Positions 1 through 10,812 are shown, numbered from the stretch's first letter. The stretch: 11,364 bases of DNA from Verrucomicrobiota bacterium (GCA_034660375.1 JAYEIY010000142.1:1-11364), one strand, 5' to 3'. Notes: generated from the letters alone by a model not told the origin. Translations and numbers: made by a program.

Positions 1-37
1 ATTAATCATTAATCATTAACCTTGAGCCTCTGGTTGC

Positions 38-304
38 CTACTGATGACCTAGAACAACGCGAAAACCCAAGTTGCTGGACGTGCTCGACGGCGAGTAACG
101 GTTGCGATTCGCTGAGCGGCAACTCCAGGCAGTGTTGCTCCAGCAACCGCCACGAAAAACCCGGTACGAGGACGAAGAAACACCCTGTGAATCCGTAACA
201 CTACCCGAAGGATAATCTCCATACAAATCCGAACACCACTCCCAGACATTACCGCTCATATCATAAATTCCAAGTTCATTAGGCTTCGTTTGCCCCACTG
301 TGAC
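38..304 (-). pseudogene. In-frame continuation of the FGE/C-type-lectin-fold domain after the TAA at 305-307 (GNVWEW...YRVFRGGCW...RSANRNRY...GFRVVLGHQ*); carries the putative DGR variable region. Either the gene 38..2674 is an ochre-interrupted pseudogene, or the stop is suppressed or a sequencing error.
   Basis: Same reading frame as 305..2674 (both coordinates are 2 mod 3). The translation restores the canonical C-terminal FGE motifs (GxYDMSGNVWEW, RGGxW, RSAxR, GFR) directly after the stop. The track ORF begins at a GTG two codons after the TAA. Confidence 0.7.
41..250 (-). other. Putative DGR variable region (VR) at the 3' end of the kinase-FGE gene, followed (plus coordinates ~20-37) by a GC-rich stretch GCAACCAGAGGCTCAAGG that could act as IMH
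   Basis: Abrupt composition shift to ~53% GC in a ~33% GC context. The coding strand is only ~16% A (33 T in 210 nt on the plus strand) against ~31% T. Codons at the non-scaffold positions are NNC-type (agc aac act gcc tgg agt tgc cgc tca gcg aat cgc aac cgt tac tcg ccg tcg agc acg tcc agc aac), as expected if template AAC codons were adenine-mutagenized. They sit in the classic CLec-fold VR scaffold YRVxRGGxW...RSAxR...GFRVV. Confidence 0.55.
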
Positions 305-2674
305 TTATTTTATAATGACTGAACCCGAATATTTATAACCTCTGCTTTTTGTTCCGCCTTTAGCAGCATATTCCCACTCTGCTTCCGTTGGTAAACGATA
401 AATATAATCTTCTGGTAAACGACCTGCCTTGCGTTCTCTATAAGTAAGTTTCTTGCAAAAATATACCGCATTATTCCAAGACACTTGTTCTACTGGATAA
501 TTAGCGCGTTTAATATAGCTTGAATTATTGCCCATAACTCGTTGGTATTCTGCTTGCGTCACCTCATACTTTCCAATCCAAAAATCATTGGTCAGGGTTA
601 CTTTATGAACAGGCTTTTCGTCACTTTCTCCGTTATTTGAGCCCATCTGAAAACTACCCGATTCCACATACACAAACTCCATGCCAAAATCAGGAATTTC
701 CCAGATAAGTTTTTCCTCGGCAAACACCTTGAATTCTTTTGCCTTAATACTCGAAAAATCGATTTTTAGTGCGGACTTTGCAAATTTTAGCATATTTCTC
801 CAGTTTTCGGAACTTTTTGCGGACTCCCCAAGTGAAATTAATTCTGCTAACGGTAATAAATTTAGTGCTTTTTCCCATTTTTGTATGGATTCAGACCACT
901 TTTCATTTTTAGCGAGTTGTTTTGCGGAGTCCGCAGAAAATTTTACATTTGCGTAGTCCGCACCACCAAATTCGATAAGTTTTTTCTCATCTGTCTTGGA
1001 AAGTGCTTTTTTATAGGTATTTTCGGCAATATTTACTGATTTTGTACCTTCTGAATAGATTTTTGCCTTTTTGTATTCGTTTTGAGCATTTTTCCAGAGT
1101 TTTGCGGAGTCCGCAAAATTTTCTCCACTTTTAAATATTTCTTCGGCATTTTTTTTGAGGTTTTCTGCGTTATTCCACAGAATTTCCGCATATTTTGCGG
1201 ACTGTGCATTTTCTGCTATTTTTGCGGAGTCCGCACTGCTTCGTTTTGCATTCAGAGCAGTTGAGCGTTCTTTGTCGAGTTCTTGTATTTTTGCACACTC
1301 CGCAATTACACTCTGATAATTTTTTAGTGCATTTCCATAGGATTTTTGTTTATAGAATTCTTCTGCGGTTTTTATTGTTATTTTTATTTTCCTTAATTTT
1401 TCTTTAAATCCTTCTCCTGGTTTTATTTTCTGTGTGTCTTTCCAGAGAATCTCAGCGTTACTTTTTGTCGGTGCGGTCCTAGAGAGTCCCTGGGATTTTA
1501 TGGGAGTTGTGTTTTGGGGTGTTTTTGTTTGCAGATTGGCTATAGGTAGACCTTTGAAGTAAAATAGGGAACCACTTGCAAGAAGTAAGATGAGTAGAGA
1601 CAGTTTCAGTAATCTGCCTGAAGGCAGAAGGGGAACACCGCCTGAAGGCGGTACTACAAACTTTTTTCCGCCAACAGCATTCACAAAATCAGAGCATGAT
1701 GAAAAGCGTTCATTTGGATCTTTGGCAAGGGCAGTAAAGAGAAATTTGTTTTGTTTGCGTTTTAGTTCTGAGAGGGATTCGGGGGTTTGTTCTTTAGCGA
1801 CCTGCATCATTACAAATGGATCATTGGTTTCAAATGCAGATGCAAAGGGAACTGCACCGCTGATGAGTTCATAAAACGTTACTGCGAGTGCATATTGGTC
1901 GGTTTGTTCATTTTGATGCTTCCCTACCCATTGCTCAGGAGCCATATACGGACGCGTGCCGCTGGTGTCGCTTACCTGATTGGAAACTCGACTCATTGAA
2001 GAACGGATTTCTGCAGCAAGACCAAAATCCAGTACCTTGATTTTGCCATCCTCTGTAATCATTACATTAGATGGTTTTATATCACGATGAACTATCTTTT
2101 CACCGTGTGCAAAATCCAGTGCCGTGGCAACTGCAGAACAAATTTCGACTGCCTTTTCAAAAGGGACTTTTTTATCATCGAACTGTCGTCGCCAGGAAGA
2201 GACAGTAGAACCTTTGATGTACTCCATTATGACCAAATAACCACCCTGCCCTACTTTTAACAAATTTTCAGAAGACTCATCTATTTTTTCGATTTTATGA
2301 AGATGTTCAAGAGATGCAATATTGGGGTGTTTCAACTTACTGACAAGAGCAAAATTTTTCCTAACATTTTCGAGTTCTTCGGGATCTTGCGAAATAAGAG
2401 CCGGAAGTACTTTTATAGCAACATAAAGTTGTGAAATAGTGTCGAACGCAAGATAGACTGCTCCAAAACCACCTGCTCCGAGTTTATGAAAAAGTTTATA
2501 CCTATCTATGCATCCAAGAACTTCTTCTCCTTTTGGACCCTGCGGTCGCTCCGTAACCATAGTCCAGATAGAATTTTCTTCTGTTTCCAAAAAAGGTTCC
2601 TGAATATTATTATCAACAACCTCTTTTCCCATAGAATTTTTTGTCGTAAAATCGCCTAATGATTTATTTGTCAT
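305..2674 (-). CDS. Transmembrane Hanks-type Ser/Thr protein kinase fused to an extracytoplasmic alpha-helical repeat region and the N-terminal two-thirds of an FGE-sulfatase (SUMF1 / C-type-lectin-fold) domain; ends at an in-frame TAA
   Basis: Kinase motifs in the translation: GAGGFGAVY (P-loop), VAIK, HRDIKPSN (catalytic loop), DFGLA, PYMAPE. One hydrophobic TM helix LLKLSLLILLLASGSLFYF. Then ~330 aa of degenerate helical repeats with a recurring ADSAK motif. Then FGE-domain motifs MGS..DEKPVH.V, YRLPTEAEWEYAAKGG. Weak SD-like AAGGA about 12 nt upstream of the ATG. Stop TAA at 305-307. Confidence 0.85.
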   Translation of the reverse strand: MTNKSLGDFTTKNSMGKEVVDNNIQEPFLETEENSIWTMVTERPQGPKGEEVLGCIDRYKLFHKLGAGGFGAVYLAFDTISQLYVAIKVLPALISQDPEELENVRKNFALVSKLKHPNIASLEHLHKIEKIDESSENLLKVGQGGYLVIMEYIKGSTVSSWRRQFDDKKVPFEKAVEICSAVATALDFAHGEKIVHRDIKPSNVMITEDGKIKVLDFGLAAEIRSSMSRVSNQVSDTSGTRPYMAPEQWVGKHQNEQTDQYALAVTFYELISGAVPFASAFETNDPFVMMQVAKEQTPESLSELKRKQNKFLFTALAKDPNERFSSCSDFVNAVGGKKFVVPPSGGVPLLPSGRLLKLSLLILLLASGSLFYFKGLPIANLQTKTPQNTTPIKSQGLSRTAPTKSNAEILWKDTQKIKPGEGFKEKLRKIKITIKTAEEFYKQKSYGNALKNYQSVIAECAKIQELDKERSTALNAKRSSADSAKIAENAQSAKYAEILWNNAENLKKNAEEIFKSGENFADSAKLWKNAQNEYKKAKIYSEGTKSVNIAENTYKKALSKTDEKKLIEFGGADYANVKFSADSAKQLAKNEKWSESIQKWEKALNLLPLAELISLGESAKSSENWRNMLKFAKSALKIDFSSIKAKEFKVFAEEKLIWEIPDFGMEFVYVESGSFQMGSNNGESDEKPVHKVTLTNDFWIGKYEVTQAEYQRVMGNNSSYIKRANYPVEQVSWNNAVYFCKKLTYRERKAGRLPEDYIYRLPTEAEWEYAAKGGTKSRGYKYSGSVIIK
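816..1236. repeat. Intragenic DNA repeats inside the kinase gene: near-palindromic 15-mer TTTGCGGAGTCCGCA. Exact copies at 921-935, 1101-1115 and 1222-1236; variants at 816-830, 951-962 and 1186-1200. Each encodes an ADSAK motif of the helical-repeat region.
   Basis: Direct reading of the plus strand. The reverse complement tgcggactccgcaaa translates to A-D-S-A-K. Confidence 0.8.
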
Positions 2675-2675
2675 A

Positions 2676-3120
2676 TTATATTTTGTCCTTTGCTCTTAAT
2701 CATTTCCGCTCTACGAGCTAAGAAATACTTGCATTCGCAAATACCGTTCGGGGGCTCACTTTCCTGCCACATAATCATTCTGTCAATCCGCACTTCGCCC
2801 TTTCCATATCTTTTGCTCTTAATCATTTTGTCACATAATCATTTTGTCACATAATCATTCTGTCAATCTGTCCTTCGCCCTTAATCATTTCCGCTCTACG
2901 AGCTAAGAAATATTTGCATTCGCAAATACCGTTCGGGGGCTCACTTTCCTGTCACATAATCATTCTGTCAATCCGCACTTCGCCCTTTCCATATCTTTTG
3001 CTCTTAATCATTTTGCCACATAATTATTCTGTCAATCTGTCCTTCGCCCTTAATCATTTCCGCTCTACGAGCTAAGAAATACTTGCATTCGCAAATACCG
3101 TTCGGGGACTCACTTTCCTG
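2676..3120. repeat. Composite intergenic repeat block, about 2.5 tandem copies of a ~170-185-bp unit. Three copies of a 61-bp conserved element (2706-2766, 2891-2951, 3060-3120), with CACATAATCATT(C/T)TGTCAAT(C) modules (reverse-oriented GACAGAAT iterons), CTTCGCCC and ATCTTTTGCTCTTAATCATT modules.
   Basis: Sequence identity between copies is visible directly, e.g. ccgctctacgagctaagaaatacttgcattcgcaaataccgttcgggggctcactttcctg x3 with 1-2 substitutions. The last copy abuts, and supplies, the TGA stop of the downstream gene at 3121-3123. Confidence 0.9.
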
Positions 3121-4650
3121 TCACACACCCTTTTGTTCGGGCACTTCCAGTACTTCGCCAATAAAACTCTCCTTTGGAAGGTTTTTGAGTCCTCTGGTAA
3201 GCCAGATCCATTCATTTTGACCATCAGTTATTGCAAATGCATCATCTTGTCTGTATAGTTTCCATGGTGTATGAATCTCTGGGAATATTTCTGATAAAGG
3301 CAACCAGTGATTAAGGATTAGGTATTTTTCTTTTAATTCATCATATCTTTTCATTAGAATTGCGGAGAAAAATTCATTTTCAGTAATATTTTTTAAAAAC
3401 TTTCCTAAAAAGCCACTTTTTTTATCTTTACGCATCTTATAGATTTTTGTTTCAAGCGGAAAGCATGATGAACTGTCTCGTGGGGAGAGCGATAATTCAA
3501 AGTATCTCTTATCATTCAAAGAGATCTTATGCTTATTAATTTTTACTGCATTAATACATGTTTCTGAAACAGAACTCAGATTCTCAATAACAGCAAAGCT
3601 ATCATTTAGCTCAATTGATGCGTGAAGTTTGCTTATCGCCTGATTTTTTCTTCTCAATTTTTGATTACTCCAGTCTTCGCTCTCGTCCGGCAGATTTCTT
3701 GTTATTAAATCCATTTTTTTCTCTTTATAGTTTCGTGCTCTGCCCAGAGAGATCTTCTTTGAATAAAGCTGCAGAAAGCTCCCGTCATTCATTTTTAGTG
3801 TAAGGCGTTTATTTTTTTCAGAATTATATGGAATCTGCAAGTTTTTTTTCTCAAGATTTTCTGGAGGTTCTGCAAGGCAAAGGGCAACTTCTTGCCAGAG
3901 CGAAGATTTTCTTAACTCTTTAAAAAGCTCAATTGAAGAAATATCTTGTTTATTTTTCTTTAGTTCATCCAAAATAGGCAGGCGAATATCACCACCTGCT
4001 TTTTGTGATGTAATATCGCCAATATTTATACTCATATTTTCAAAAAGTTTACCCGCATCTTCATTTTCAGGATGAACCTCAATCTCTATTTGTTCAGAAA
4101 AACATTTTTCTTCTTTTTCCAATTCATAAATAAAGTAGACCCAAGCAGATTGCTCAGCACCTTTAGAGCCTGCCTTTGGTCTATAATTTACCTTGATTTC
4201 TCTTTTTGAAGAAATTCTTGAGTAACGGATATGTGCTTCCTTAAAACTTCCGTCAGGCAACTCTAAAATAAGCTTAAAATTCTCTGCGTTCTTTGCATTT
4301 GGGCTTTTGGGAATAATCCGAAATTGCAGGGCCGCCATATTTTTTTCAATAAAAACAGATGAACCAGCATTCCACTCAAGAGAAAAATCTTCACAATCTG
4401 AATCTAAGTTTGTATCAACTTCTTCTATAACTTTCTCTTCGTTTCGATTGATAATCCCGCAGATGCTTTCTTCGGAAATTTTGAGAGTTTTACTCTCTGA
4501 GAGCGCATCATTTGAGTCTTCGTTGAAATCACTTTTTTGAGGTCCCTGTTCGATATGGCTATCGTTATTTTCTACTTTTGTACCACATTCAGAACAAAAC
4601 AGTGCATCTTCCGATAATATTTCACTGCATTCCGGGCATTTAAAACTCAC
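3121..4650 (-). CDS. N-terminal zinc-ribbon (CPEC...CSECG) protein with a C-terminal FHA (forkhead-associated, phospho-Thr-binding)-like domain; likely partner of the adjacent Ser/Thr kinase
   Basis: 509-aa ORF with GTG start 7 nt after GGAGG. N-terminus CPECSEILSEDALFCSECG. FHA-like motifs: SLGRARN...DLITRN (GR loop), ISKLHASIEL (SxxH), NDSFAVIENLSSVSETCINAVKI...ISLNDKRYFEL. Stop TGA is embedded in the repeat module. Confidence 0.7.
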   Translation of the reverse strand: MSFKCPECSEILSEDALFCSECGTKVENNDSHIEQGPQKSDFNEDSNDALSESKTLKISEESICGIINRNEEKVIEEVDTNLDSDCEDFSLEWNAGSSVFIEKNMAALQFRIIPKSPNAKNAENFKLILELPDGSFKEAHIRYSRISSKREIKVNYRPKAGSKGAEQSAWVYFIYELEKEEKCFSEQIEIEVHPENEDAGKLFENMSINIGDITSQKAGGDIRLPILDELKKNKQDISSIELFKELRKSSLWQEVALCLAEPPENLEKKNLQIPYNSEKNKRLTLKMNDGSFLQLYSKKISLGRARNYKEKKMDLITRNLPDESEDWSNQKLRRKNQAISKLHASIELNDSFAVIENLSSVSETCINAVKINKHKISLNDKRYFELSLSPRDSSSCFPLETKIYKMRKDKKSGFLGKFLKNITENEFFSAILMKRYDELKEKYLILNHWLPLSEIFPEIHTPWKLYRQDDAFAITDGQNEWIWLTRGLKNLPKESFIGEVLEVPEQKGV

Positions 4651-4680
4651 TGAATACCTCCTTTTATTTTAACTGCCAAT

Positions 4681-4716
4681 TTGACAGAATTATTAAGAGC
4701 AAAAGATCTATTTTAT
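4681..4716. repeat. Single forward-oriented module TTGACAGAATTATTAAGAGCAAAAGATCTATTTTAT, 30 bp upstream (coding sense) of the FHA-protein start
   Basis: Matches the iteron plus AAGAGCAAAAGAT modules seen at 2800-2830 (inverted), 6676-6840, 10036-10068 and 10851-10882. Confidence 0.8.
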
Positions 4717-5164
4717 ATCTTTGAACTAGGGCTGAAAGCGCGCAATAAAACAATCTCTAAATTCATAAAAAATTTTCTCAGATTGTGTTTTTATCCATTT
4801 TGAAGAAGAAGTCTTTATTTCTTCCAATAATTTTGCTGGTGCAATCTTTTTTGATATTTGACATAGTATATGAACGTGGTCATTAATCCTGCCGATAATT
4901 ATTGAGGGTGAATTCTGTTTTTCACAAATTGTAGCTACATATACATGTAAATTTGCTTGCAGTTTCTCCAGAATAATTACCCGTTCAGTTCAATTTATGT
5001 GAAATCTAATATGTGTATAGCTGTGATAATGATTGTGCCATATTTATTACGGGTCTTCAGCCCTCTTATTCTTGTTACATCCGTTTTCCCGAAGCGTTGT
5101 CCCGGGCTATGGAATTATGGGCCTTCTTCGTCCTTATCCGTGTTTATCCGTGTCCATCTGTGGT

Positions 5165-6652
5165 TTACCTATTAATATTACTCCTATTTTTTGCTACTTC
5201 GGCGTTGGCATCAAGGGCCTTTTCCATAATTTTTTCAAGTCTATCTGAATTTTCTTTTATTATTTTTTCTCTTTCTTCGTATCCTTTATTTTCTGCTTCC
5301 ATCATTGCTGCGAGAGCCTTTGCGGCTTCTGGCGAACTTTCTGCAGCTACAGCAAGACGTTCTTCAGGTGTCATTAATTTTTTGTCATCCTGTTGCTTAA
5401 ATTTGAGTAGTCTTTGAGCCTCTTCTTCAGGCAGTGCAGCAATCATTTCTTTTATATCGTGTTTTGAATACATTTCTAGCTTTGCTTTTTGATCATCGCG
5501 AGTTATTTGTTGCTTCTGTTGTTTTATCTTTAACCAGTCTTCAGTTTCTTTTAGTTCTTGATTATGCGTTCTATCCTGCTGATCAAGTCCCTGAGTAAAC
5601 TGCAAGTCTTCGAGTTCAAGTTGATGCAATCCATCTTTTTTATCTATTTCATGATTATGAACCTGCTTTAAGACCTGCATTTCATGTTCCATATTCTCAC
5701 GGCTTACTCCGTATTCATGAAGAAGTTGTTCTTCATACATTTTGAGATCATTATCCGACTTTATTTCATCCATTTCATCCGCACGAACAGCATCACGAAG
5801 ACGCTTTTTCAGAACATTTTCACGGCATCTTATTTCTATATCACCGGATTTCTTACGCAATTCTTCATAATCTTCTCCGTAAAACTGAATGGCGGCAACC
5901 CTCACCTCTTCTATTCCTAAATGCTTAGATGTTTTATTAATGACATCAGCAAGAGAATCTTCGAACGCACTTCTTACGTCAGAAGATTTAATTAAATCAT
6001 CAATATTAGTCGAATTAGTCAAATTTTTGACAGCCTGAGATACATCACGCTCTACTACTTCTGTTATTTGCTGATAAGTTACCTGTCTGGAATCTTTCAT
6101 CAAATTATTAATAAGTTCATCGATTCTTTTTAAATTAAACTGAAAAACTGATTCAGTATAAAAACTCAATTCCATATCTTCTTTGGAGCGAAGTCCCTTC
6201 TTTTGAAAAGGCAAGATAATTTCACCACTATCAACCAATAAAATACTCTTTATGGCAGAGGAAAAGATGCTGGCAAATATCCCGTCTTTCAAAGAATATT
6301 TGCCGGCTTCAATAACTTTTGACACCTTTGCATCTTTGAGAACAACAATTGCGGTTCCAGGCTGAATAATAAGAAAATTTTTTACATTGCGTCTTATGTC
6401 AGCGACCTCGATTCGTTGCAAAAATGCTTCCGGCGGACGATTGATTATATTTCCAGTTACAAGTTTGCGTTCTTCTGGATGCAATCTGCTTTTGCAATGC
6501 GGACAAAATTCAGATTCCACACCGACCCATTTATCACAAGTTCCGCACTTGCTCCAGCCCTTTGGTGCCGGCTCTCCGCATTTACTACAAAATCTAGCAC
6601 GCTTTTTTACAGTATGACCACATTTTTCACACTTATTACTAAAAATACCCAT
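5165..6652 (-). CDS. Double zinc-ribbon / SPFH (band-7, stomatin-prohibitin-flotillin family) domain protein with a long C-terminal coiled coil
   Basis: 495-aa ORF. ATG is 8 nt after GGAGG. N-terminus CEKCG...FCSKCG...CGTCDK...CPHCK. SPFH-like core IEVADIRRNVKNFLIIQPGTAIVVL ... GIEEVRVAAIQF. C-terminal ~200 aa is charged heptad-rich (EEQLLHEY...KETEDWLKIKQQKQQ). Stop TAA. Confidence 0.8.
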   Translation of the reverse strand: MGIFSNKCEKCGHTVKKRARFCSKCGEPAPKGWSKCGTCDKWVGVESEFCPHCKSRLHPEERKLVTGNIINRPPEAFLQRIEVADIRRNVKNFLIIQPGTAIVVLKDAKVSKVIEAGKYSLKDGIFASIFSSAIKSILLVDSGEIILPFQKKGLRSKEDMELSFYTESVFQFNLKRIDELINNLMKDSRQVTYQQITEVVERDVSQAVKNLTNSTNIDDLIKSSDVRSAFEDSLADVINKTSKHLGIEEVRVAAIQFYGEDYEELRKKSGDIEIRCRENVLKKRLRDAVRADEMDEIKSDNDLKMYEEQLLHEYGVSRENMEHEMQVLKQVHNHEIDKKDGLHQLELEDLQFTQGLDQQDRTHNQELKETEDWLKIKQQKQQITRDDQKAKLEMYSKHDIKEMIAALPEEEAQRLLKFKQQDDKKLMTPEERLAVAAESSPEAAKALAAMMEAENKGYEEREKIIKENSDRLEKIMEKALDANAEVAKNRSNINR

Positions 6653-6675
6653 GATAAATCCTCCTTTTATTTATT

Positions 6676-6840
6676 TTGACAGAATTATTATGTGACAGAA
6701 TTATTAAGAACAAAGAGCTTATTTTTTTTATTGACAGAATTATTATGTGACAGAATTATTAAGAACAAAGAGCTTATTTTTTTTATTGACAGAATTATTA
6801 TGTGACAGAATCATTAAGAACAAGAGCCTATTTTTTTATT
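6676..6840. repeat. Perfect tandem repeat, 3 x 55 bp (TTGACAGAATTATTATGTGACAGAATTATTAAGAACAAAGAGCTTATTTTTTTTA). Each unit has two 13-bp iterons GACAGAATTATTA and a T8 homopolymer. It sits immediately upstream of the SPFH gene start on the opposite strand.
   Basis: Copies start at 6676, 6731 and 6786. Copies 1 and 2 are identical; copy 3 has about 3 changes. Confidence 0.95.
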
Positions 6841-7006
6841 TTTTTTATTTGAACTTCTTTATTATTAAAATTTATCCAAATCAGACTATTCAAATTAGTA
6901 TGTAACAATAAACGCTGAATATTATTCTTATAATTTTCCTGTTTTCTAGAAATAGCAGATAAATGAAAAGCTGTTGTTGTATTTAATAAATGGAATTTTT
7001 GTTTAC

Positions 7007-7627
7007 CTATCTTTTTTTATCCACATAAATATCAACAGAATGTATCACTTTTTCTGAACCTCCGAGAAAGAATACCAAAGCTTCGTTGTATAAATTTATA
7101 TCTAAAAAAACTCCCCAATTATTAAGTAACTCAGTTAATATGTTCAGTAACATTGCACTTTCAGAATCCCTATCCTCAAAATTTTTATTATTAATTGAAA
7201 ATCGTTTTCTTGATTGAAAATCCAAAGATGTAGAAACGAATTTATATTCTACCGACAGGGGCGTAAAATTAATTAATTTACCATGCCTTACATTAGTTAA
7301 TAATAAATAGTTTATTAATTGATTTTGATGAAACTCATTCAACTTTTCTACAGTTTTCAATTCATAAATAATGGAGTTTTCAACAACTAAATCTAAAAAG
7401 TAAGTTTTTCTGAAATTTTTGTAAATAATATGAATAGGAATTTCTTTTTCTACTTTTAAACCTATATTTTTACATAAAATACTCAATTGAGTCTGATAAA
7501 TATCTTCGTTGCAAAAACGTCCCAATTCGTTATGAATTTCATATACCTGCCCCATAACTAAGTAATCAATTTCATGAAATTGATTTTGATTTATTACTTT
7601 TATTTTTTCTCTACATTCAAACGCCAT
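7007..7627 (-). CDS. GxxExxY-family protein (PD-(D/E)XK nuclease-like superfamily)
   Basis: 206 aa. N-terminal pattern EIDYLVMGQVYEIHNELGRFCNEDIYQTQLSILCKNIGLKVEKEIPIHIIYK...YFLDLVVENSIIYELKTVEKL...HQNQLINYLLLTNVRHGKLINF. It matches the family architecture recalled from memory: (YKIIG..VY..LG.GLLE..Y...L...GL.VE...P..Y.G...RLDLLVE...IVELK.VE...H.AQLL.YL.....GLLINF), including the D...ExK core. Stop TAG. Confidence 0.65.
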   Translation of the reverse strand: MAFECREKIKVINQNQFHEIDYLVMGQVYEIHNELGRFCNEDIYQTQLSILCKNIGLKVEKEIPIHIIYKNFRKTYFLDLVVENSIIYELKTVEKLNEFHQNQLINYLLLTNVRHGKLINFTPLSVEYKFVSTSLDFQSRKRFSINNKNFEDRDSESAMLLNILTELLNNWGVFLDINLYNEALVFFLGGSEKVIHSVDIYVDKKR

Positions 7628-7628
7628 A

Positions 7629-7855
7629 TCCTTCGCCCTTAATTATTCTGTCACTTAATCATTCTGTCAATCTGTCCTTCGCCCTTTCCTATCTTTTGCC
7701 CTTAATTATTCCCGCTCTACGAGCTAAGAAATACTTGCATTCGCAAATACCGTTCGAGGGCTCACTTTCCTGCCACTTAATCATTCTGTCAATCTGTCCT
7801 TCGCCCTTAATTATTCTGTCAATCTGTCCTTCGCCCTTAATCATTCTCTTGATTT
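7629..7855. repeat. Composite intergenic repeat block: CTTCGCCC modules, reverse-oriented iterons (AATTATTCTGTCACTTAATCATTCTGTCAATCTG), and the fourth copy of the 61-bp element (7722-7772)
   Basis: Direct sequence identity to 2676-3120 modules: ccgctctacgagctaagaaatacttgcattcgcaaataccgttcgagggctcactttcctg. Confidence 0.9.
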
Positions 7856-8755
7856 TTACCAAAGTTTGGTTTTTCCCGTAGAAAAAATTGCTTTGAGATT
7901 ATTGCTTTGTGTTGAACTAGAAGCCTTAAATGCTAAAGAGATAAATTGTTCTACCTGCTTGTCTGTATCTTTTATTTTCTTGATTTTCTTAAAATCTTTT
8001 GCTTCTATATATTCATAAATTATTCCGCTAGGATAGACATCCTTTATGTACATAATATGAATTTTTATTATTTCCCAATTGTTTTCAAGCAAGCGACAAG
8101 TAATAATCCCTGTTTTTCCCGACAAGGTATTTACAAGTGTATCTACTTTTCTCTGGAGCCCACTTACGCTAGTTCCAAAGGCATTCTGCAAGACTTTTGC
8201 ATCAAGGACAATTTCTGTAGAAGCAATACTCGCAATGACTTTGTTACAGGATCTATTTACATGTGGGAGGACTTCTGATGTAAGTTTTTTAATAACTTCT
8301 CTTTTAGCATTGTCTTCTCCTACAACTCTTTCACTCATAGCAGTAATTTGTTCACGAGCCAACAAGTATTCTCTATTTAATCTGACAGATAGATCCAATT
8401 GTCCTTTGTAGACATAGTATGATGCATATTTATTAAATAGTTTATTATCACAATCCATATCAACTGTTACAAAAGGAGTCTCAGTTACAACGAGTTTAAA
8501 TCCAAGTCTGGCAATCTCACCCTCGACTTTCCTGACTAAATCATTGTCATTGCCTTCAACTTTAAGAGGAATTTTTCTTGGTTGAATTGATGCAATTTTT
8601 TGTAGTCCAAGCAAGCCACCTGAGTCACTTTTAGCTTGTGCAGTTCTTATAATTACTGCTGTTTGAGCTGTTGCTACAGTCTGCTCAACTCTTTTGGGAG
8701 TACGAGCGCAACCTACGAATACGAGTACTGCGATTAATAAAACTAGATTTCTCAT
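7856..8755 (-). CDS. Lipoprotein of unknown function (signal peptide MRNLVLLIAVLVFVGC, lipobox VFVGC)
   Basis: 299-aa ORF. ATG is 8 nt after AAGGAGA. Starts 14 bp downstream of the stop of the 8770..9990 gene, so probably co-transcribed with it. No recognisable catalytic motifs. Confidence 0.7.
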   Translation of the reverse strand: MRNLVLLIAVLVFVGCARTPKRVEQTVATAQTAVIIRTAQAKSDSGGLLGLQKIASIQPRKIPLKVEGNDNDLVRKVEGEIARLGFKLVVTETPFVTVDMDCDNKLFNKYASYYVYKGQLDLSVRLNREYLLAREQITAMSERVVGEDNAKREVIKKLTSEVLPHVNRSCNKVIASIASTEIVLDAKVLQNAFGTSVSGLQRKVDTLVNTLSGKTGIITCRLLENNWEIIKIHIMYIKDVYPSGIIYEYIEAKDFKKIKKIKDTDKQVEQFISLAFKASSSTQSNNLKAIFSTGKTKLW

Positions 8756-8769
8756 TTGTTTCTCCTTTA

Positions 8770-9990
8770 TTATCTTATTTGAGTCATTTTTTTAAGAATA
8801 AAAATTGCCAACACAAGGGCAATCAACGCAGCGACAACACCACCTGCAATCATTAAAATAGTCTTGTTATCTTTAATTGCTTTTTTTACTTTATAATCGG
8901 GGGTACGCTCAGCTGTATCAATAAATTGACCAGTTACTGTCTTGCCCCAGAGAAGTTGATTATTTTTAAAATTTCTTAGCGAAAATGCAACTGTTATACT
9001 ATATTCTTTCTGATCTTTTGCTTTATTGTCTTTCTGTTCAAGATTTTTTACTACTCCGGTCATATAAAGATTTTCTTTTGAAATTTTAGTTGTAACTCCG
9101 GAAGCACCGCTTTCCGTTCCTATATCAAAAACCTGCTCGACCTGCTTCATCATTCTTTTTATCTCCCGCATATCCGGTAGAGTTCCGGAACCTGCACCCG
9201 CAAGATCCAATGCAATAGAATGTGCAACTCTTTTATTTTGTGGATTTGAAGGACTAGAGAAAAATGCAAGCTTTGTGTTCCCAACAGCCACAATCTCTGA
9301 CAAAATAGTATCTGTAAGCTGATCTGCTTTTTCTCCAATAAGAGGAAGTACAAAAACATTGCCGTCAGGAATTTGTGATATTTTTTCCTGCAAATCTTTC
9401 AAAGCATTTTGACCAAGATTTTCCGCTGCAAAAAGTAGGCCTTTTGAAATATTTTCCAGTTTCATTATTTTATGCTCGCCAACTATATTTCCTGACCACA
9501 GTATCTTTTGAGATCTTAGATCCTGTAGAGTCAATGTAACCCTAAAGATTCCAGAACCATCTACAACCGTGGCCTCAAGAACTTTTCCATACAAATATGC
9601 TTCTACACCTTGTTTTTTGGTCTTTTCCAATGAAAGAAAAGTATCAAGATCAATTGTTGATTCCTGTCCCATAAGAGCTAACTCAAGCTCAGACCCTGAA
9701 AATGCATCAGTTTCCATTTCCGACATCCTACGTTCGGCTTCATCTCTTGTAATAAATTCATACTCTCCAGGAACCCTTAACAATCCTCCCCTAAACACAA
9801 AGTTCATCTCCTTTGCACCCGCAATTCCTAGAAATGCGATTTTTTTGACATCCACCTTGCGTTTTGTCAACTCCTTGATTGTTTTGAATGCCGCATCTTC
9901 CGCTGCATAGTCAATCTCTCTTTCCGCCGCCGAGATTAAAAATCCAGCACACACGAGTAACACCATTAATACTTTTCTTGCTTGTTTCAT
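8770..9990 (-). CDS. Exported protein of unknown function with an N-terminal signal peptide and a C-terminal transmembrane anchor (ILMIAGGVVAALIALVLAIFIL)
   Basis: 406-aa ORF. ATG is 8 nt after GGAGG. Hydrophobic N-terminus MKQARKVLMVLLVCAGFLISAA. Ends with tandem stops TAA TAA. Confidence 0.7.
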   Translation of the reverse strand: MKQARKVLMVLLVCAGFLISAAEREIDYAAEDAAFKTIKELTKRKVDVKKIAFLGIAGAKEMNFVFRGGLLRVPGEYEFITRDEAERRMSEMETDAFSGSELELALMGQESTIDLDTFLSLEKTKKQGVEAYLYGKVLEATVVDGSGIFRVTLTLQDLRSQKILWSGNIVGEHKIMKLENISKGLLFAAENLGQNALKDLQEKISQIPDGNVFVLPLIGEKADQLTDTILSEIVAVGNTKLAFFSSPSNPQNKRVAHSIALDLAGAGSGTLPDMREIKRMMKQVEQVFDIGTESGASGVTTKISKENLYMTGVVKNLEQKDNKAKDQKEYSITVAFSLRNFKNNQLLWGKTVTGQFIDTAERTPDYKVKKAIKDNKTILMIAGGVVAALIALVLAIFILKKMTQIR

Positions 9991-10171: not shown

Positions 10172-10558
10172 TTAATAAAGCAAAAGTCCATCAATATTCT
10201 TAAAGTGCTTATCAAGTGTAAACAATGCTAACCCATATTGAATAGTTGTTGCTGCAATCCAAATATCATTGGTGGGAATAGGTTTGCCTTTTTCTTTCAA
10301 CTGCTTAAAAACAGAAGCATAAATTTCGGATGTTGTTTCATATAAAGACAAAAAATCAACACGTGGAGTATCTAGAAATTCCTCCAAGTAATAAATATTC
10401 TGTTTTTCTTTATTTCCCAATTAAAAACCAGAATAAATTTCTCCTAAAATTATTGCCGAAATGCCTATGTACTCTGTAGATTTTTATACCTTTATCACTT
10501 CAGGATTATTTCTCTTGAATTCAGAATAAATATTAGTGTCTATTAATATTTTTTTCAT
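10172..10558 (-). pseudogene. vapC: vapC-like PIN-domain toxin interrupted by two in-frame TAA codons (10484-10486 and 10421-10423), with no frameshift
   Basis: Conceptual translation in one frame: MKKILIDTNIYSEFKRNNPEVIKV*KSTEYIGISAIILGEIYSGF*LGNKEKQNIYYLEEFLDTPRVDFLSLYETTSEIYASVFKQLKEKGKPIPTNDIWIAATTIQYGLALFTLDKHFKNIDGLLLY. Typical VapC motifs: ILIDTN, SAI.LGE, NDIWIAATA. Its ATG overlaps the vapB stop as ATGA. Confidence 0.7.
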
Positions 10559-10812
10559 TTCCAAAGCCCCTTGTCAATTTGAGAAAAAGATTTGGTATTT
10601 GCATTAAATTCTTTATATTCTTCTTCTGTCCAGGTTCCCGCTAAACTATCTAAGTCGTCATATTTTACCGAAAACTGTTTTTTAGATACTTCTGTTCCCT
10701 GTCTCAATATTTTAAGAACACAAGAGTTCAAACTCGTATTTGTTTTTCTTGCTTTATCCTTTAATGTGTTAACTAACTCAGCATCAATACTTTTAATTGT
10801 TAGTGTTGACAT
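10555..10812 (-). CDS. vapB: VapB-family antitoxin (ribbon-helix-helix N-terminus, C-terminal toxin-binding tail with LAGTWTEEEYKEF motif)
   Basis: 85 aa, MSTLTIKSIDAELVNTLKDKARKTNTSLNSCVLKILRQ (FitA/RHH-like). Stop TGA overlaps the vapC start (ATGA). SD GGGGAG 8 nt upstream. Confidence 0.75.
   Translation of the reverse strand: MSTLTIKSIDAELVNTLKDKARKTNTSLNSCVLKILRQGTEVSKKQFSVKYDDLDSLAGTWTEEEYKEFNANTKSFSQIDKGLWK

Follow-up and report, generated by a model that had tools for sequence, protein, structure and literature searches.

Organization of the kinase-FGE gene

The sequence analyzed here (JAYEIY010000142.1:1-11364, assembly GCA_034660375.1) is referred to as the window and has a length of 11,364 nt. 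At its left edge it carries, on the minus strand, a reading frame which codes for a Hanks-type Ser/Thr kinase followed by a domain of the FGE-sulfatase family (FGE, formylglycine-generating enzyme). We refer to this as the kinase-FGE gene. Its 3' end resembles the variable region (VR) of a diversity-generating retroelement (DGR), a type of element which uses a template repeat (TR) and a reverse transcriptase (RT). The locus has probably decayed and belongs to a known class of DGR targets; no retroelement is visible in the window. The features of the gene and its immediate surroundings are as follows.

38–2674, minus strand: kinase-FGE reading frame, from the ATG at 2674 to the TAG at 38–40, split by an in-frame TAA at 305–307
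305–2674, minus strand: open reading frame (ORF) of 789 aa with the Hanks Ser/Thr kinase, transmembrane (TM) helix, linker, and N-terminal half of the FGE-sulfatase domain; ends at the premature TAA
1697–2500, minus strand: protein kinase domain, residues 59–326 (Pfam Pkinase, E=1e-44)
1556–1612, minus strand: single predicted TM helix LLKLSLLILLLASGSLFYF, residues 355–373 (top Kyte-Doolittle 19-residue window, 2.0; exact boundaries are predictions)
692–1555, minus strand: Lys/Ala/Glu-rich linker with ADSAK repeats, presumably helical
323–679, minus strand: N-terminal part of the FGE-sulfatase domain, Pfam profile positions 4–135 (E=4e-25)
305–319, minus strand: lesion, consisting of the in-frame TAA (305–307) and the site of a 36-nt loss (12 codons, 'DxVAWYxxNSGx') relative to every homologue
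38–298, minus strand: remnant ORF of 86 aa in the same frame, with the C-terminal part of the FGE-sulfatase domain (profile positions 169–254, E=3e-22); includes the VR-like segment
41–268, minus strand: composition-shifted segment (GC content at third codon positions, GC3, 43–63% vs 31%; third-position A 4/76 vs 302/802)
45–169, minus strand: VR-like core, defined by an ungapped 125-nt alignment with the VR and TR of the homologous locus L122 (see below)
1–37, no strand assigned: spacer downstream of the stop codon, with a proposed initiation of mutagenic homing (IMH) site (20–37) and a partial intergenic repeat (1–20)

An initial annotation of the window had treated 38–2674 as one gene, but the in-frame TAA leaves two ORFs of 789 and 86 aa. 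The domain order proposed there (Hanks kinase, one TM helix, linker, FGE-sulfatase domain) is matched by the Pfam results and the hydrophobicity profile. The Hanks motifs are complete: GAGGFG (residue 66), VAIK (85), HRDIKPSN (196), DFG (216), and APE (245). The linker is shorter in the window protein than in its homologues. The repeat in the linker DNA (806–1304, minus strand) is a perfect palindrome, TGCGGAGTCCGCA, which encodes the ADSAK peptide and is present in three exact and three degenerate copies; the motif was not seen in homologues.

The combination of Pkinase and FGE-sulfatase domains is widespread (7579 matches at E<=1e-10), and the gene belongs to a widespread receptor family termed 'bifunctional Ser/Thr kinase / FGE-family'. 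Its best protein relative is only 58% identical, and no closer one was found in the protein or contig collections. PADLOC and NCBIfam returned only generic kinase-domain similarity, with no match above a curated cut-off. When aligned to human SUMF1 with phmmer, the window sequence shows a gap at the Cys-bearing segment which follows RGG in catalytic FGE (GGsymCHRSY...). This segment is the active site of the formylglycine-generating enzyme. Among solved structures, the FGE domain from the window is best matched by the non-catalytic TvpA (PDB 2Y3C, E=1.1e-25).

Composition and codon usage of the 3' end

The jump in GC content and the depletion of adenine described in the initial annotation for 41–250 are borne out. 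On the coding strand, this segment has 53.3% GC and 15.7% A, while the adjoining part of the FGE region has 38–39% GC and 34–35% A. The baseline of 33% GC given for the gene was too low, as the gene body has 38.8% GC. The shift is most evident at third codon positions. Adenine is found there in 4 of the last 76 codons, compared to 302 of 802 codons elsewhere in the gene (Fisher p=3e-10), and GC3 rises to 63% in the last 43 codons (31% elsewhere). The depletion of third-position A cannot be explained by amino acid content.

The reported dominance of NNC triplets is equally found, with such codons making up 39% of those in 47–171 but only 15.5% in the remaining gene. The scaffold YRVxRGGxW / RSAxR / GFRVV, which had been read from the sequence, is present in the translated 3' end as YRVFRGGCW / CRSANR / LGFRVV.

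Homology to the DGR locus L122

A kinase-FGE protein (P0006) which is 42% identical to the window protein over 78% of the query is encoded in locus L122 (GCA_029935755.1, contig JAPOGX010000723.1). There, the kinase-FGE gene (466–3645) is followed by a gene for an HRDC-domain protein (3871–4314), an RVT_1 gene (4311–5315), and a TR (5333–5461). The 129-nt repeat formed by this TR and the VR (3510–3638) is 87% identical, and all 17 mismatches are at adenines of the TR. L122 is thus a bona fide DGR with the HRDC (Treponema-like) architecture, which has been described by Wu et al. (PMC5758913).

The VR-like core from the window aligns with both repeats of L122. Compared to the L122 TR, mismatches occur at 19 of 36 A sites and at 21 of 89 non-A sites (Fisher p=0.003). 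The two sequences are only 68% identical, and because 21 mismatches are at non-A sites, the L122 TR is not the template of the window gene; a related template would have been used instead. Codons which specify Asn (AAY) in the L122 TR are read in the window as TAC, TTT, AGC, AGT, TAC, AGC, TCC, and AGC, and an odd TGG codon in the core aligns with an AGG codon of the TR. The core is uninterrupted, with no stop in 43 codons.

The codon signature is also shared. The body of the L122 gene has 33% GC and 44% third-position A, and its VR has 52.5% GC and 9% third-position A. The corresponding values for third-position A in the window are 37.5% and 4.7%. The second kinase of locus L121, which contains the closest relative of the window gene, has an FGE end that is not VR-like and shows nearly no shift (third-position A 19% vs 24%). 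At the protein level, 13 aligned homologues vary exactly at the x positions of RGGxWxxxAxxCRSAxRxxxxPxxxxxxLGFR.

The assignment of the 3' end to the class of DGR VRs is thus supported by homology and codon signature, on the basis of the ungapped alignment to L122, the shared codon signature, and TvpA being the best structural match. In this respect the VR proposed in the initial annotation stands, although a template belonging to the window gene itself was not seen.

The lesion in the FGE core

All 13 aligned homologues contain the sequence SGS-(N/D)x(I/L)DxVAWYxxNSGxKTHxVGxKxxNELGIYDMSGNVWEW. The counterpart of the AWYxxNS core region in the window is SGS-VIIK*VTVGQTKP-NELGIYDMSGNVWEW. Compared to the L122 DNA, a stretch of 36 nt (12 codons) is cleanly absent, and the TAA at 305–307 is found at the position of the Thr in the 'KTH' of the homologues. 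In the 13-homologue alignment, a near-invariant Trp and a near-invariant Asn are lost from the window FGE domain. EWEYA and DMSGNV are 39 residues apart in the window but 46–82 residues apart in homologues (95 domains from 86 homologues). Consistently, positions 136–168 of the FGE-sulfatase Pfam profile are unmatched, and the AWYxxNS...THPVG core is incomplete.

Given the 36-nt deletion, the TAA, and the lost Trp and Asn, the FGE fold is broken and the VR part is no longer translated together with the kinase. The receptor is therefore not intact in this copy, which is probably a recently decayed pseudogene. The initial annotation had envisaged a hypervariable domain wired directly to a kinase; in the window, the two are separated by the TAA and the deletion.

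Another gene of the window is likewise interrupted. The gene for a VapC/PIN toxin (10172–10558, minus strand) aligns over its full length to solved VapC structures, yet contains two in-frame TAA codons (10484–10486 and 10421–10423). The gene for its partner, an RHH antitoxin (10555–10812), is intact. The simplest reading of the kinase-FGE and VapC lesions is gene decay in this stretch of the genome. All three internal in-frame stops in the window are TAA. Recoding of TAA as a sense codon was considered and rejected: the LpoB-like gene (see below) ends with TAATAA, after which come an AGGAGA ribosome-binding site and the next ATG, and the homologous residues differ among the three TAA positions.

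Search for retroelement components

A TR was sought outside the window with an anchored pattern, CGWGGMGGWWRMTGGARMAAMAMWRMMWRRARWTGMCGMWMAGCRAAWCGMAAMMRWWAMWMRCCRWMRARMAMRWMMARMAAMWWRGGWTTWCGM, in which the conserved bases of Gly, Arg, Trp, and Pro codons are fixed and the others are adenine-tolerant in IUPAC code (C→M, G→R, T→W). This pattern had no matches in viral contigs and none in JGI metagenome contigs. A BLASTn comparison of 30–270 with phage and plasmid collections returned only short matches to FGE genes and no TR.

Nine kinase-FGE loci have enough flanking sequence for comparison (L121, L122, L123, L124, L125, L132, L144, L157, and L200; flanks examined up to 10 kb per side). An RT or an adenine-biased repeat was found in only one of them, L122. 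A location of TR and RT directly past the left edge of the window, as expected in the initial annotation, is possible but not the likeliest, because eight of the nine loci have no local RT or TR and the edge is already within a generic repeat. When the VRs of L121 and L123, which are paralogues from the closest relative, were compared with respect to a shared TR, they were found to differ at synonymous non-A sites.

The sequence just after the stop codon, GCAACCAGAGGCTCAAGG, had been proposed as IMH. This is not corroborated. The 80 nt around the stop codon, of which only 37 nt are past the stop, fold into a hairpin or cruciform no better than shuffled sequences (-4 kcal/mol, z=0.55). The TR/VR homology in L122 ends 7 nt before the stop codon, and the region after the stop enters a generic intergenic repeat. 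Within the coding 3' end, the DNA sequence GGGTTTTCGCGTTGTTCT(A/T)GGTC is almost the same in L123 and L124, although these differ in genomic GC content. This sequence may be a better IMH candidate than the one after the stop codon.

Gene neighborhood and intergenic repeats

The following genes in the window have counterparts in L121.

3121–4650, minus strand: zinc-ribbon and FHA-domain protein, 509 aa (weak FHA match, 22.1 bits with a cut-off of 20.7)
7856–8755, minus strand: 299-aa protein (22% identical to L121 gene)
8770–9990, minus strand: LpoB-like protein, 406 aa (31% identical to L121 gene; weak Pfam LpoB match, below the cut-off)

That an FHA-domain protein is encoded next to the kinase, as stated in the initial annotation, is confirmed by the above-cut-off match and by the FHA homologue in L121. 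The latter is encoded beside P0002, the kinase of the closest relative, and is 31% identical to the 509-aa protein over the full length. The pairing of kinase and FHA protein suggests a phospho-signalling module. The set of zinc-ribbon/FHA, LpoB-like, and ~300-aa proteins is common to the window (3121–9990) and L121 (15376–19315), but the gene order differs, and a zinc-ribbon SPFH/Band7 protein (5165–6652) is additionally encoded in the window.

On the minus strand, there are four copies (2678–2772, 2863–2957, 3032–3126, and 7684–7778) of a ~95-nt conserved intergenic element (core GTGRCAGGAAAGTGAGCCCCCGAACGGTATTTGCGAATGCAAGTATTTCTTAGCTCGTAGAGCGGAAATGATTAAG), three of which form a tandem array between the FHA gene and the kinase gene. 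The element has no match in Rfam. It was rejected as a structured RNA, since its folding is not superior to that of shuffled sequence. When the complete window was scanned with Rfam and for tRNAs, there were also no matches.

The 14-nt motif TGACAGAATNATTA occurs in 17 copies (9 on the plus and 8 on the minus strand), all of them intergenic (e.g., at 2772, 2852, 2957, 3021, 4682, 6677–6803, 7640–7808, 10037, and 10053), with a partial copy at 1–20. Copies upstream of the kinase gene make up promoter-like sites (TTGACA-17-AATGAT). The motif may represent a promoter/operator module, or a dispersed repeat which broke the assembly at the left edge.

The region 6600–7600 is very AT-rich (20–28% GC). 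It involves three tandem 55-nt repeats (6667–6842) and an adjoining gene of the PD-(D/E)XK_3 / GxxExxY family (7007–7627). The stretch looks like an island inserted between the Band7 gene and the gene for the 299-aa protein.

Origin of the VR-like end

We consider it likely that the kinase-FGE gene is a decayed receptor kinase from a known family of DGR targets, the VR-like end of which was written from a TR at some time by a retroelement that is not visible in the window. In this family, a cytoplasmic Hanks kinase is connected by one TM helix and a helical stalk to a C-terminal C-type lectin (CLec) domain of the FGE type, and in at least some members this domain is a DGR target. The RT makes errors at adenines when it copies the TR, and the resulting cDNA replaces the last ~125 nt of the gene. 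Such overwriting randomizes the face which binds the ligand, but leaves the RGGxW...CRSAxR...LGFR scaffold unchanged. In an intact receptor, binding of a ligand to the variable face may activate the kinase, and the resulting Thr phosphorylation may be read by the neighboring FHA protein; this signalling logic is suggested by the domain functions and the conserved gene neighborhood. At some time, a TR most likely served as the source of the last 125–230 nt of the window gene, because the DNA scaffold is homologous to a TR/VR pair, NNY codons are found at Asn-template positions, and third-position A is scarce. The TAA at 305–307 and the 36-nt deletion in the AWYxxNS core cut the FGE fold and uncouple the VR from the kinase.

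Several observations weigh against this interpretation. A TR-like copy was not found in the 11.4-kb window by a repeat finder, by low-stringency BLASTn, or with the adenine-tolerant IUPAC pattern at up to 3 mismatches, all of which returned the VR alone. RT, Avd, and HRDC domains are absent from all window ORFs of at least 60 aa (Pfam). The composition shift, which reaches to ~268, extends ~100 nt further upstream than the equivalent of the L122 VR and to within ~40 nt of the lesion; this excess may stem from a TR of greater length or from a foreign cassette brought in by recombination. The codon signature is proof of descent from a diversified or template-like sequence but not of current activity. 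Finally, errors in sequencing or assembly could account for the TAA and the deletion, even if a 36-nt in-frame deletion together with a stop codon is unlikely as an error.

If the lesions were indeed artefacts, the gene might be intact and still undergoing diversification as a DGR target, with its TR, accessory gene, and RT directly adjacent on the left. L122 has just this arrangement, with HRDC gene, RT, and TR no more than 1.8 kb downstream of the VR, and the 43 codons of the VR without a stop as well as the 789 open codons upstream would be in agreement with it. We nevertheless consider this improbable. There are two independent adjacent lesions, which is an atypical error pattern, and the VapC gene is a second case in the same window, with two nonsense codons of the same type. 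Also, the general lack of RT and TR in the flanks of the other eight loci and the generic repeat at the left edge argue against a DGR at this place.

A further possibility is that we are dealing with a remote (trans) target or with an orphan paralogue, which would have inherited its VR-like end, or acquired it by recombination, from a DGR-associated paralogue or a higher-GC cassette, with no DGR servicing it in the genome. Most close homologues have VR-like ends but no local DGR, and remote targets as well as non-diversified CLec paralogues are documented (PMC5758913, PMC7517822). The shift of ~230 nt exceeds the 125-nt homology to the TR and begins no more than ~40 nt from the lesion, as would fit a recombination junction, and the near-identity of GGGTTTTCGCGTTGTTCT(A/T)GGTC across genomes of differing GC content points in the same direction. 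On the other hand, published remote targets are still serviced in trans, so that a missing local RT does not imply inactivity. Third-position A is as low as in the L122 VR, which argues for a template origin over ordinary divergence, and no donor sequence was found in the pattern scans of viral and JGI metagenome contigs or among phages and plasmids. This origin is conceivable, but we lean against it.

It is highly improbable that the 3' end is an ordinary FGE C-terminus with no DGR history, its GC content and motifs simply resulting from an FGE end rich in Gly, Arg, Trp, Cys, and Ser. The RGGSW...R.A.R...GFR scaffold is admittedly common to all FGE-sulfatase domains, including enzymes, and some rise in GC is to be expected from the amino acid content. 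However, the depletion of third-position A is independent of that content, and the FGE end of the second L121 kinase, which is not VR-like, is barely shifted. The Cys-bearing insertion of catalytic FGE is missing and TvpA is the best match, and the homology to the L122 TR extends to the DNA level.

Taken together, we favor a decayed DGR target with a TR-derived end. A more far-reaching proposal is that a trans-acting DGR, perhaps with an unusually long TR of ~230 nt, still diversifies the extracytoplasmic lectin tip of TM Hanks kinases which signal to a module of FHA/zinc-ribbon, LpoB-like, and 299-aa proteins in an apparently non-cyanobacterial low-GC genome, with the window copy having just been inactivated. 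This is tentative and, in our view, rather doubtful. If it were true, one might speak of an 'adaptive' receptor-kinase pathway. More generally, if a DGR services this family, a variable lectin face would be located outside the membrane on a receptor kinase with a conserved FHA partner. Ligand recognition by a hypermutated domain would thereby be linked to phospho-signalling in a simple and testable way, and this outside the cyanobacteria, the lineage from which kinase-CLec targets were originally reported.

Comparison with known systems

Kinase-containing DGR targets, remote targets, and proposals of 'antigen-sensor' functions have already been published. Wu et al. 2018 (PMC5758913) reported kinase-containing targets (type b12). 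In cyanobacteria, no other multidomain DGR targets are as common, and many copies are remote (PMC7517822); Thiohalocapsa PB-PSB1 also has such targets (PMC10907252). The window gene may differ slightly in its TM topology, with the variable face on the extracytoplasmic side, in its probably non-cyanobacterial host, and in the conserved FHA/LpoB-like neighborhood. The window copy itself is of value as a further family member and as an example of a VR signature which persists in a decaying gene.

Bordetella phage BPP-1, the archetypal DGR with its Mtd target, resembles the window in that adenine-specific mutagenic retrohoming, as presumed here, is directed into the 3' end of a gene with a CLec fold. 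It differs by having a phage tail-fibre target, the accessory protein Avd, and a defined IMH with hairpin; neither IMH, hairpin, and avd nor TR and RT could be shown for the window.

Targets which have an FGE domain but no kinase, and which have a local RT, are found in L127, L140, and L158. The single DGR of L140 (Ga0114922_10000544, 985–12620; RT at 1544–2590, TR at 2614–2737) serves three VRs (985–1107, 10542–10665, and 12493–12620), two of which lie 8–10 kb from the RT. These VRs have 9, 12, and 16 mismatches at TR adenines and 0, 3, and 2 at other sites. L127 (JGI10211J34971_10036249, 12–3219) belongs to the same HRDC-type DGR lineage as L122, their RTs being 48% identical. Its target lacks a kinase and consists of a long N-terminal region and an FGE VR domain which is 50% identical to that from the window. 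The N-terminal modules to which the variable cassette is joined differ.

TvpA (Treponema denticola variable protein 1), a target of an HRDC-type DGR, has the FGE-subtype CLec fold, a C-terminal VR, and the motif RVLRGGSW...GFR in common with the window protein (PMC5758913). Unlike the latter, it is a lipoprotein without a kinase and retains the AWYGSNSGS segment.

The kinase-FGE target of L122 shares its layout with the window gene. It consists of Pkinase, TM helix, helical stalk, and FGE domain, with the VR at the same place, and has a low-GC body with a GC-rich and A-poor VR. It is intact, with HRDC gene, RT, and TR all located within 1.8 kb, whereas the window gene is interrupted, has no visible TR or RT, and has a shifted segment which is ~100 nt longer.

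Dore et al. 2024 (PMC10907252) described DGR targets of Thiohalocapsa PB-PSB1 and further multicellular bacteria in which the CLec/FGE VR is joined to domains for signalling or conflict, Pkinase and TM segments among them. It is almost only codon positions 1 and 2 of these targets which vary, as in the signature of the window gene. TRs and RTs were identified for these loci and variation was measured, while no TR or RT was found in the window.

The cyanobacterial Ser/Thr kinase-CLec proteins (Vallota-Eastman et al. 2020, PMC7517822) share the fusion of an N-terminal Hanks kinase to a C-terminal CLec domain, which is diversified by a DGR. This set comprises many remote targets and paralogues, and tuning of signal transduction has been proposed as its role. 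In contrast, none of the relatives of the window gene carries a cyanobacterial name, and the only organism name among them is Victivallaceae. Also, kinase and lectin domain of the window protein are separated by a TM helix, which would place the variable face outside the cytoplasm, and its gene is found in a conserved FHA/LpoB-like neighborhood.

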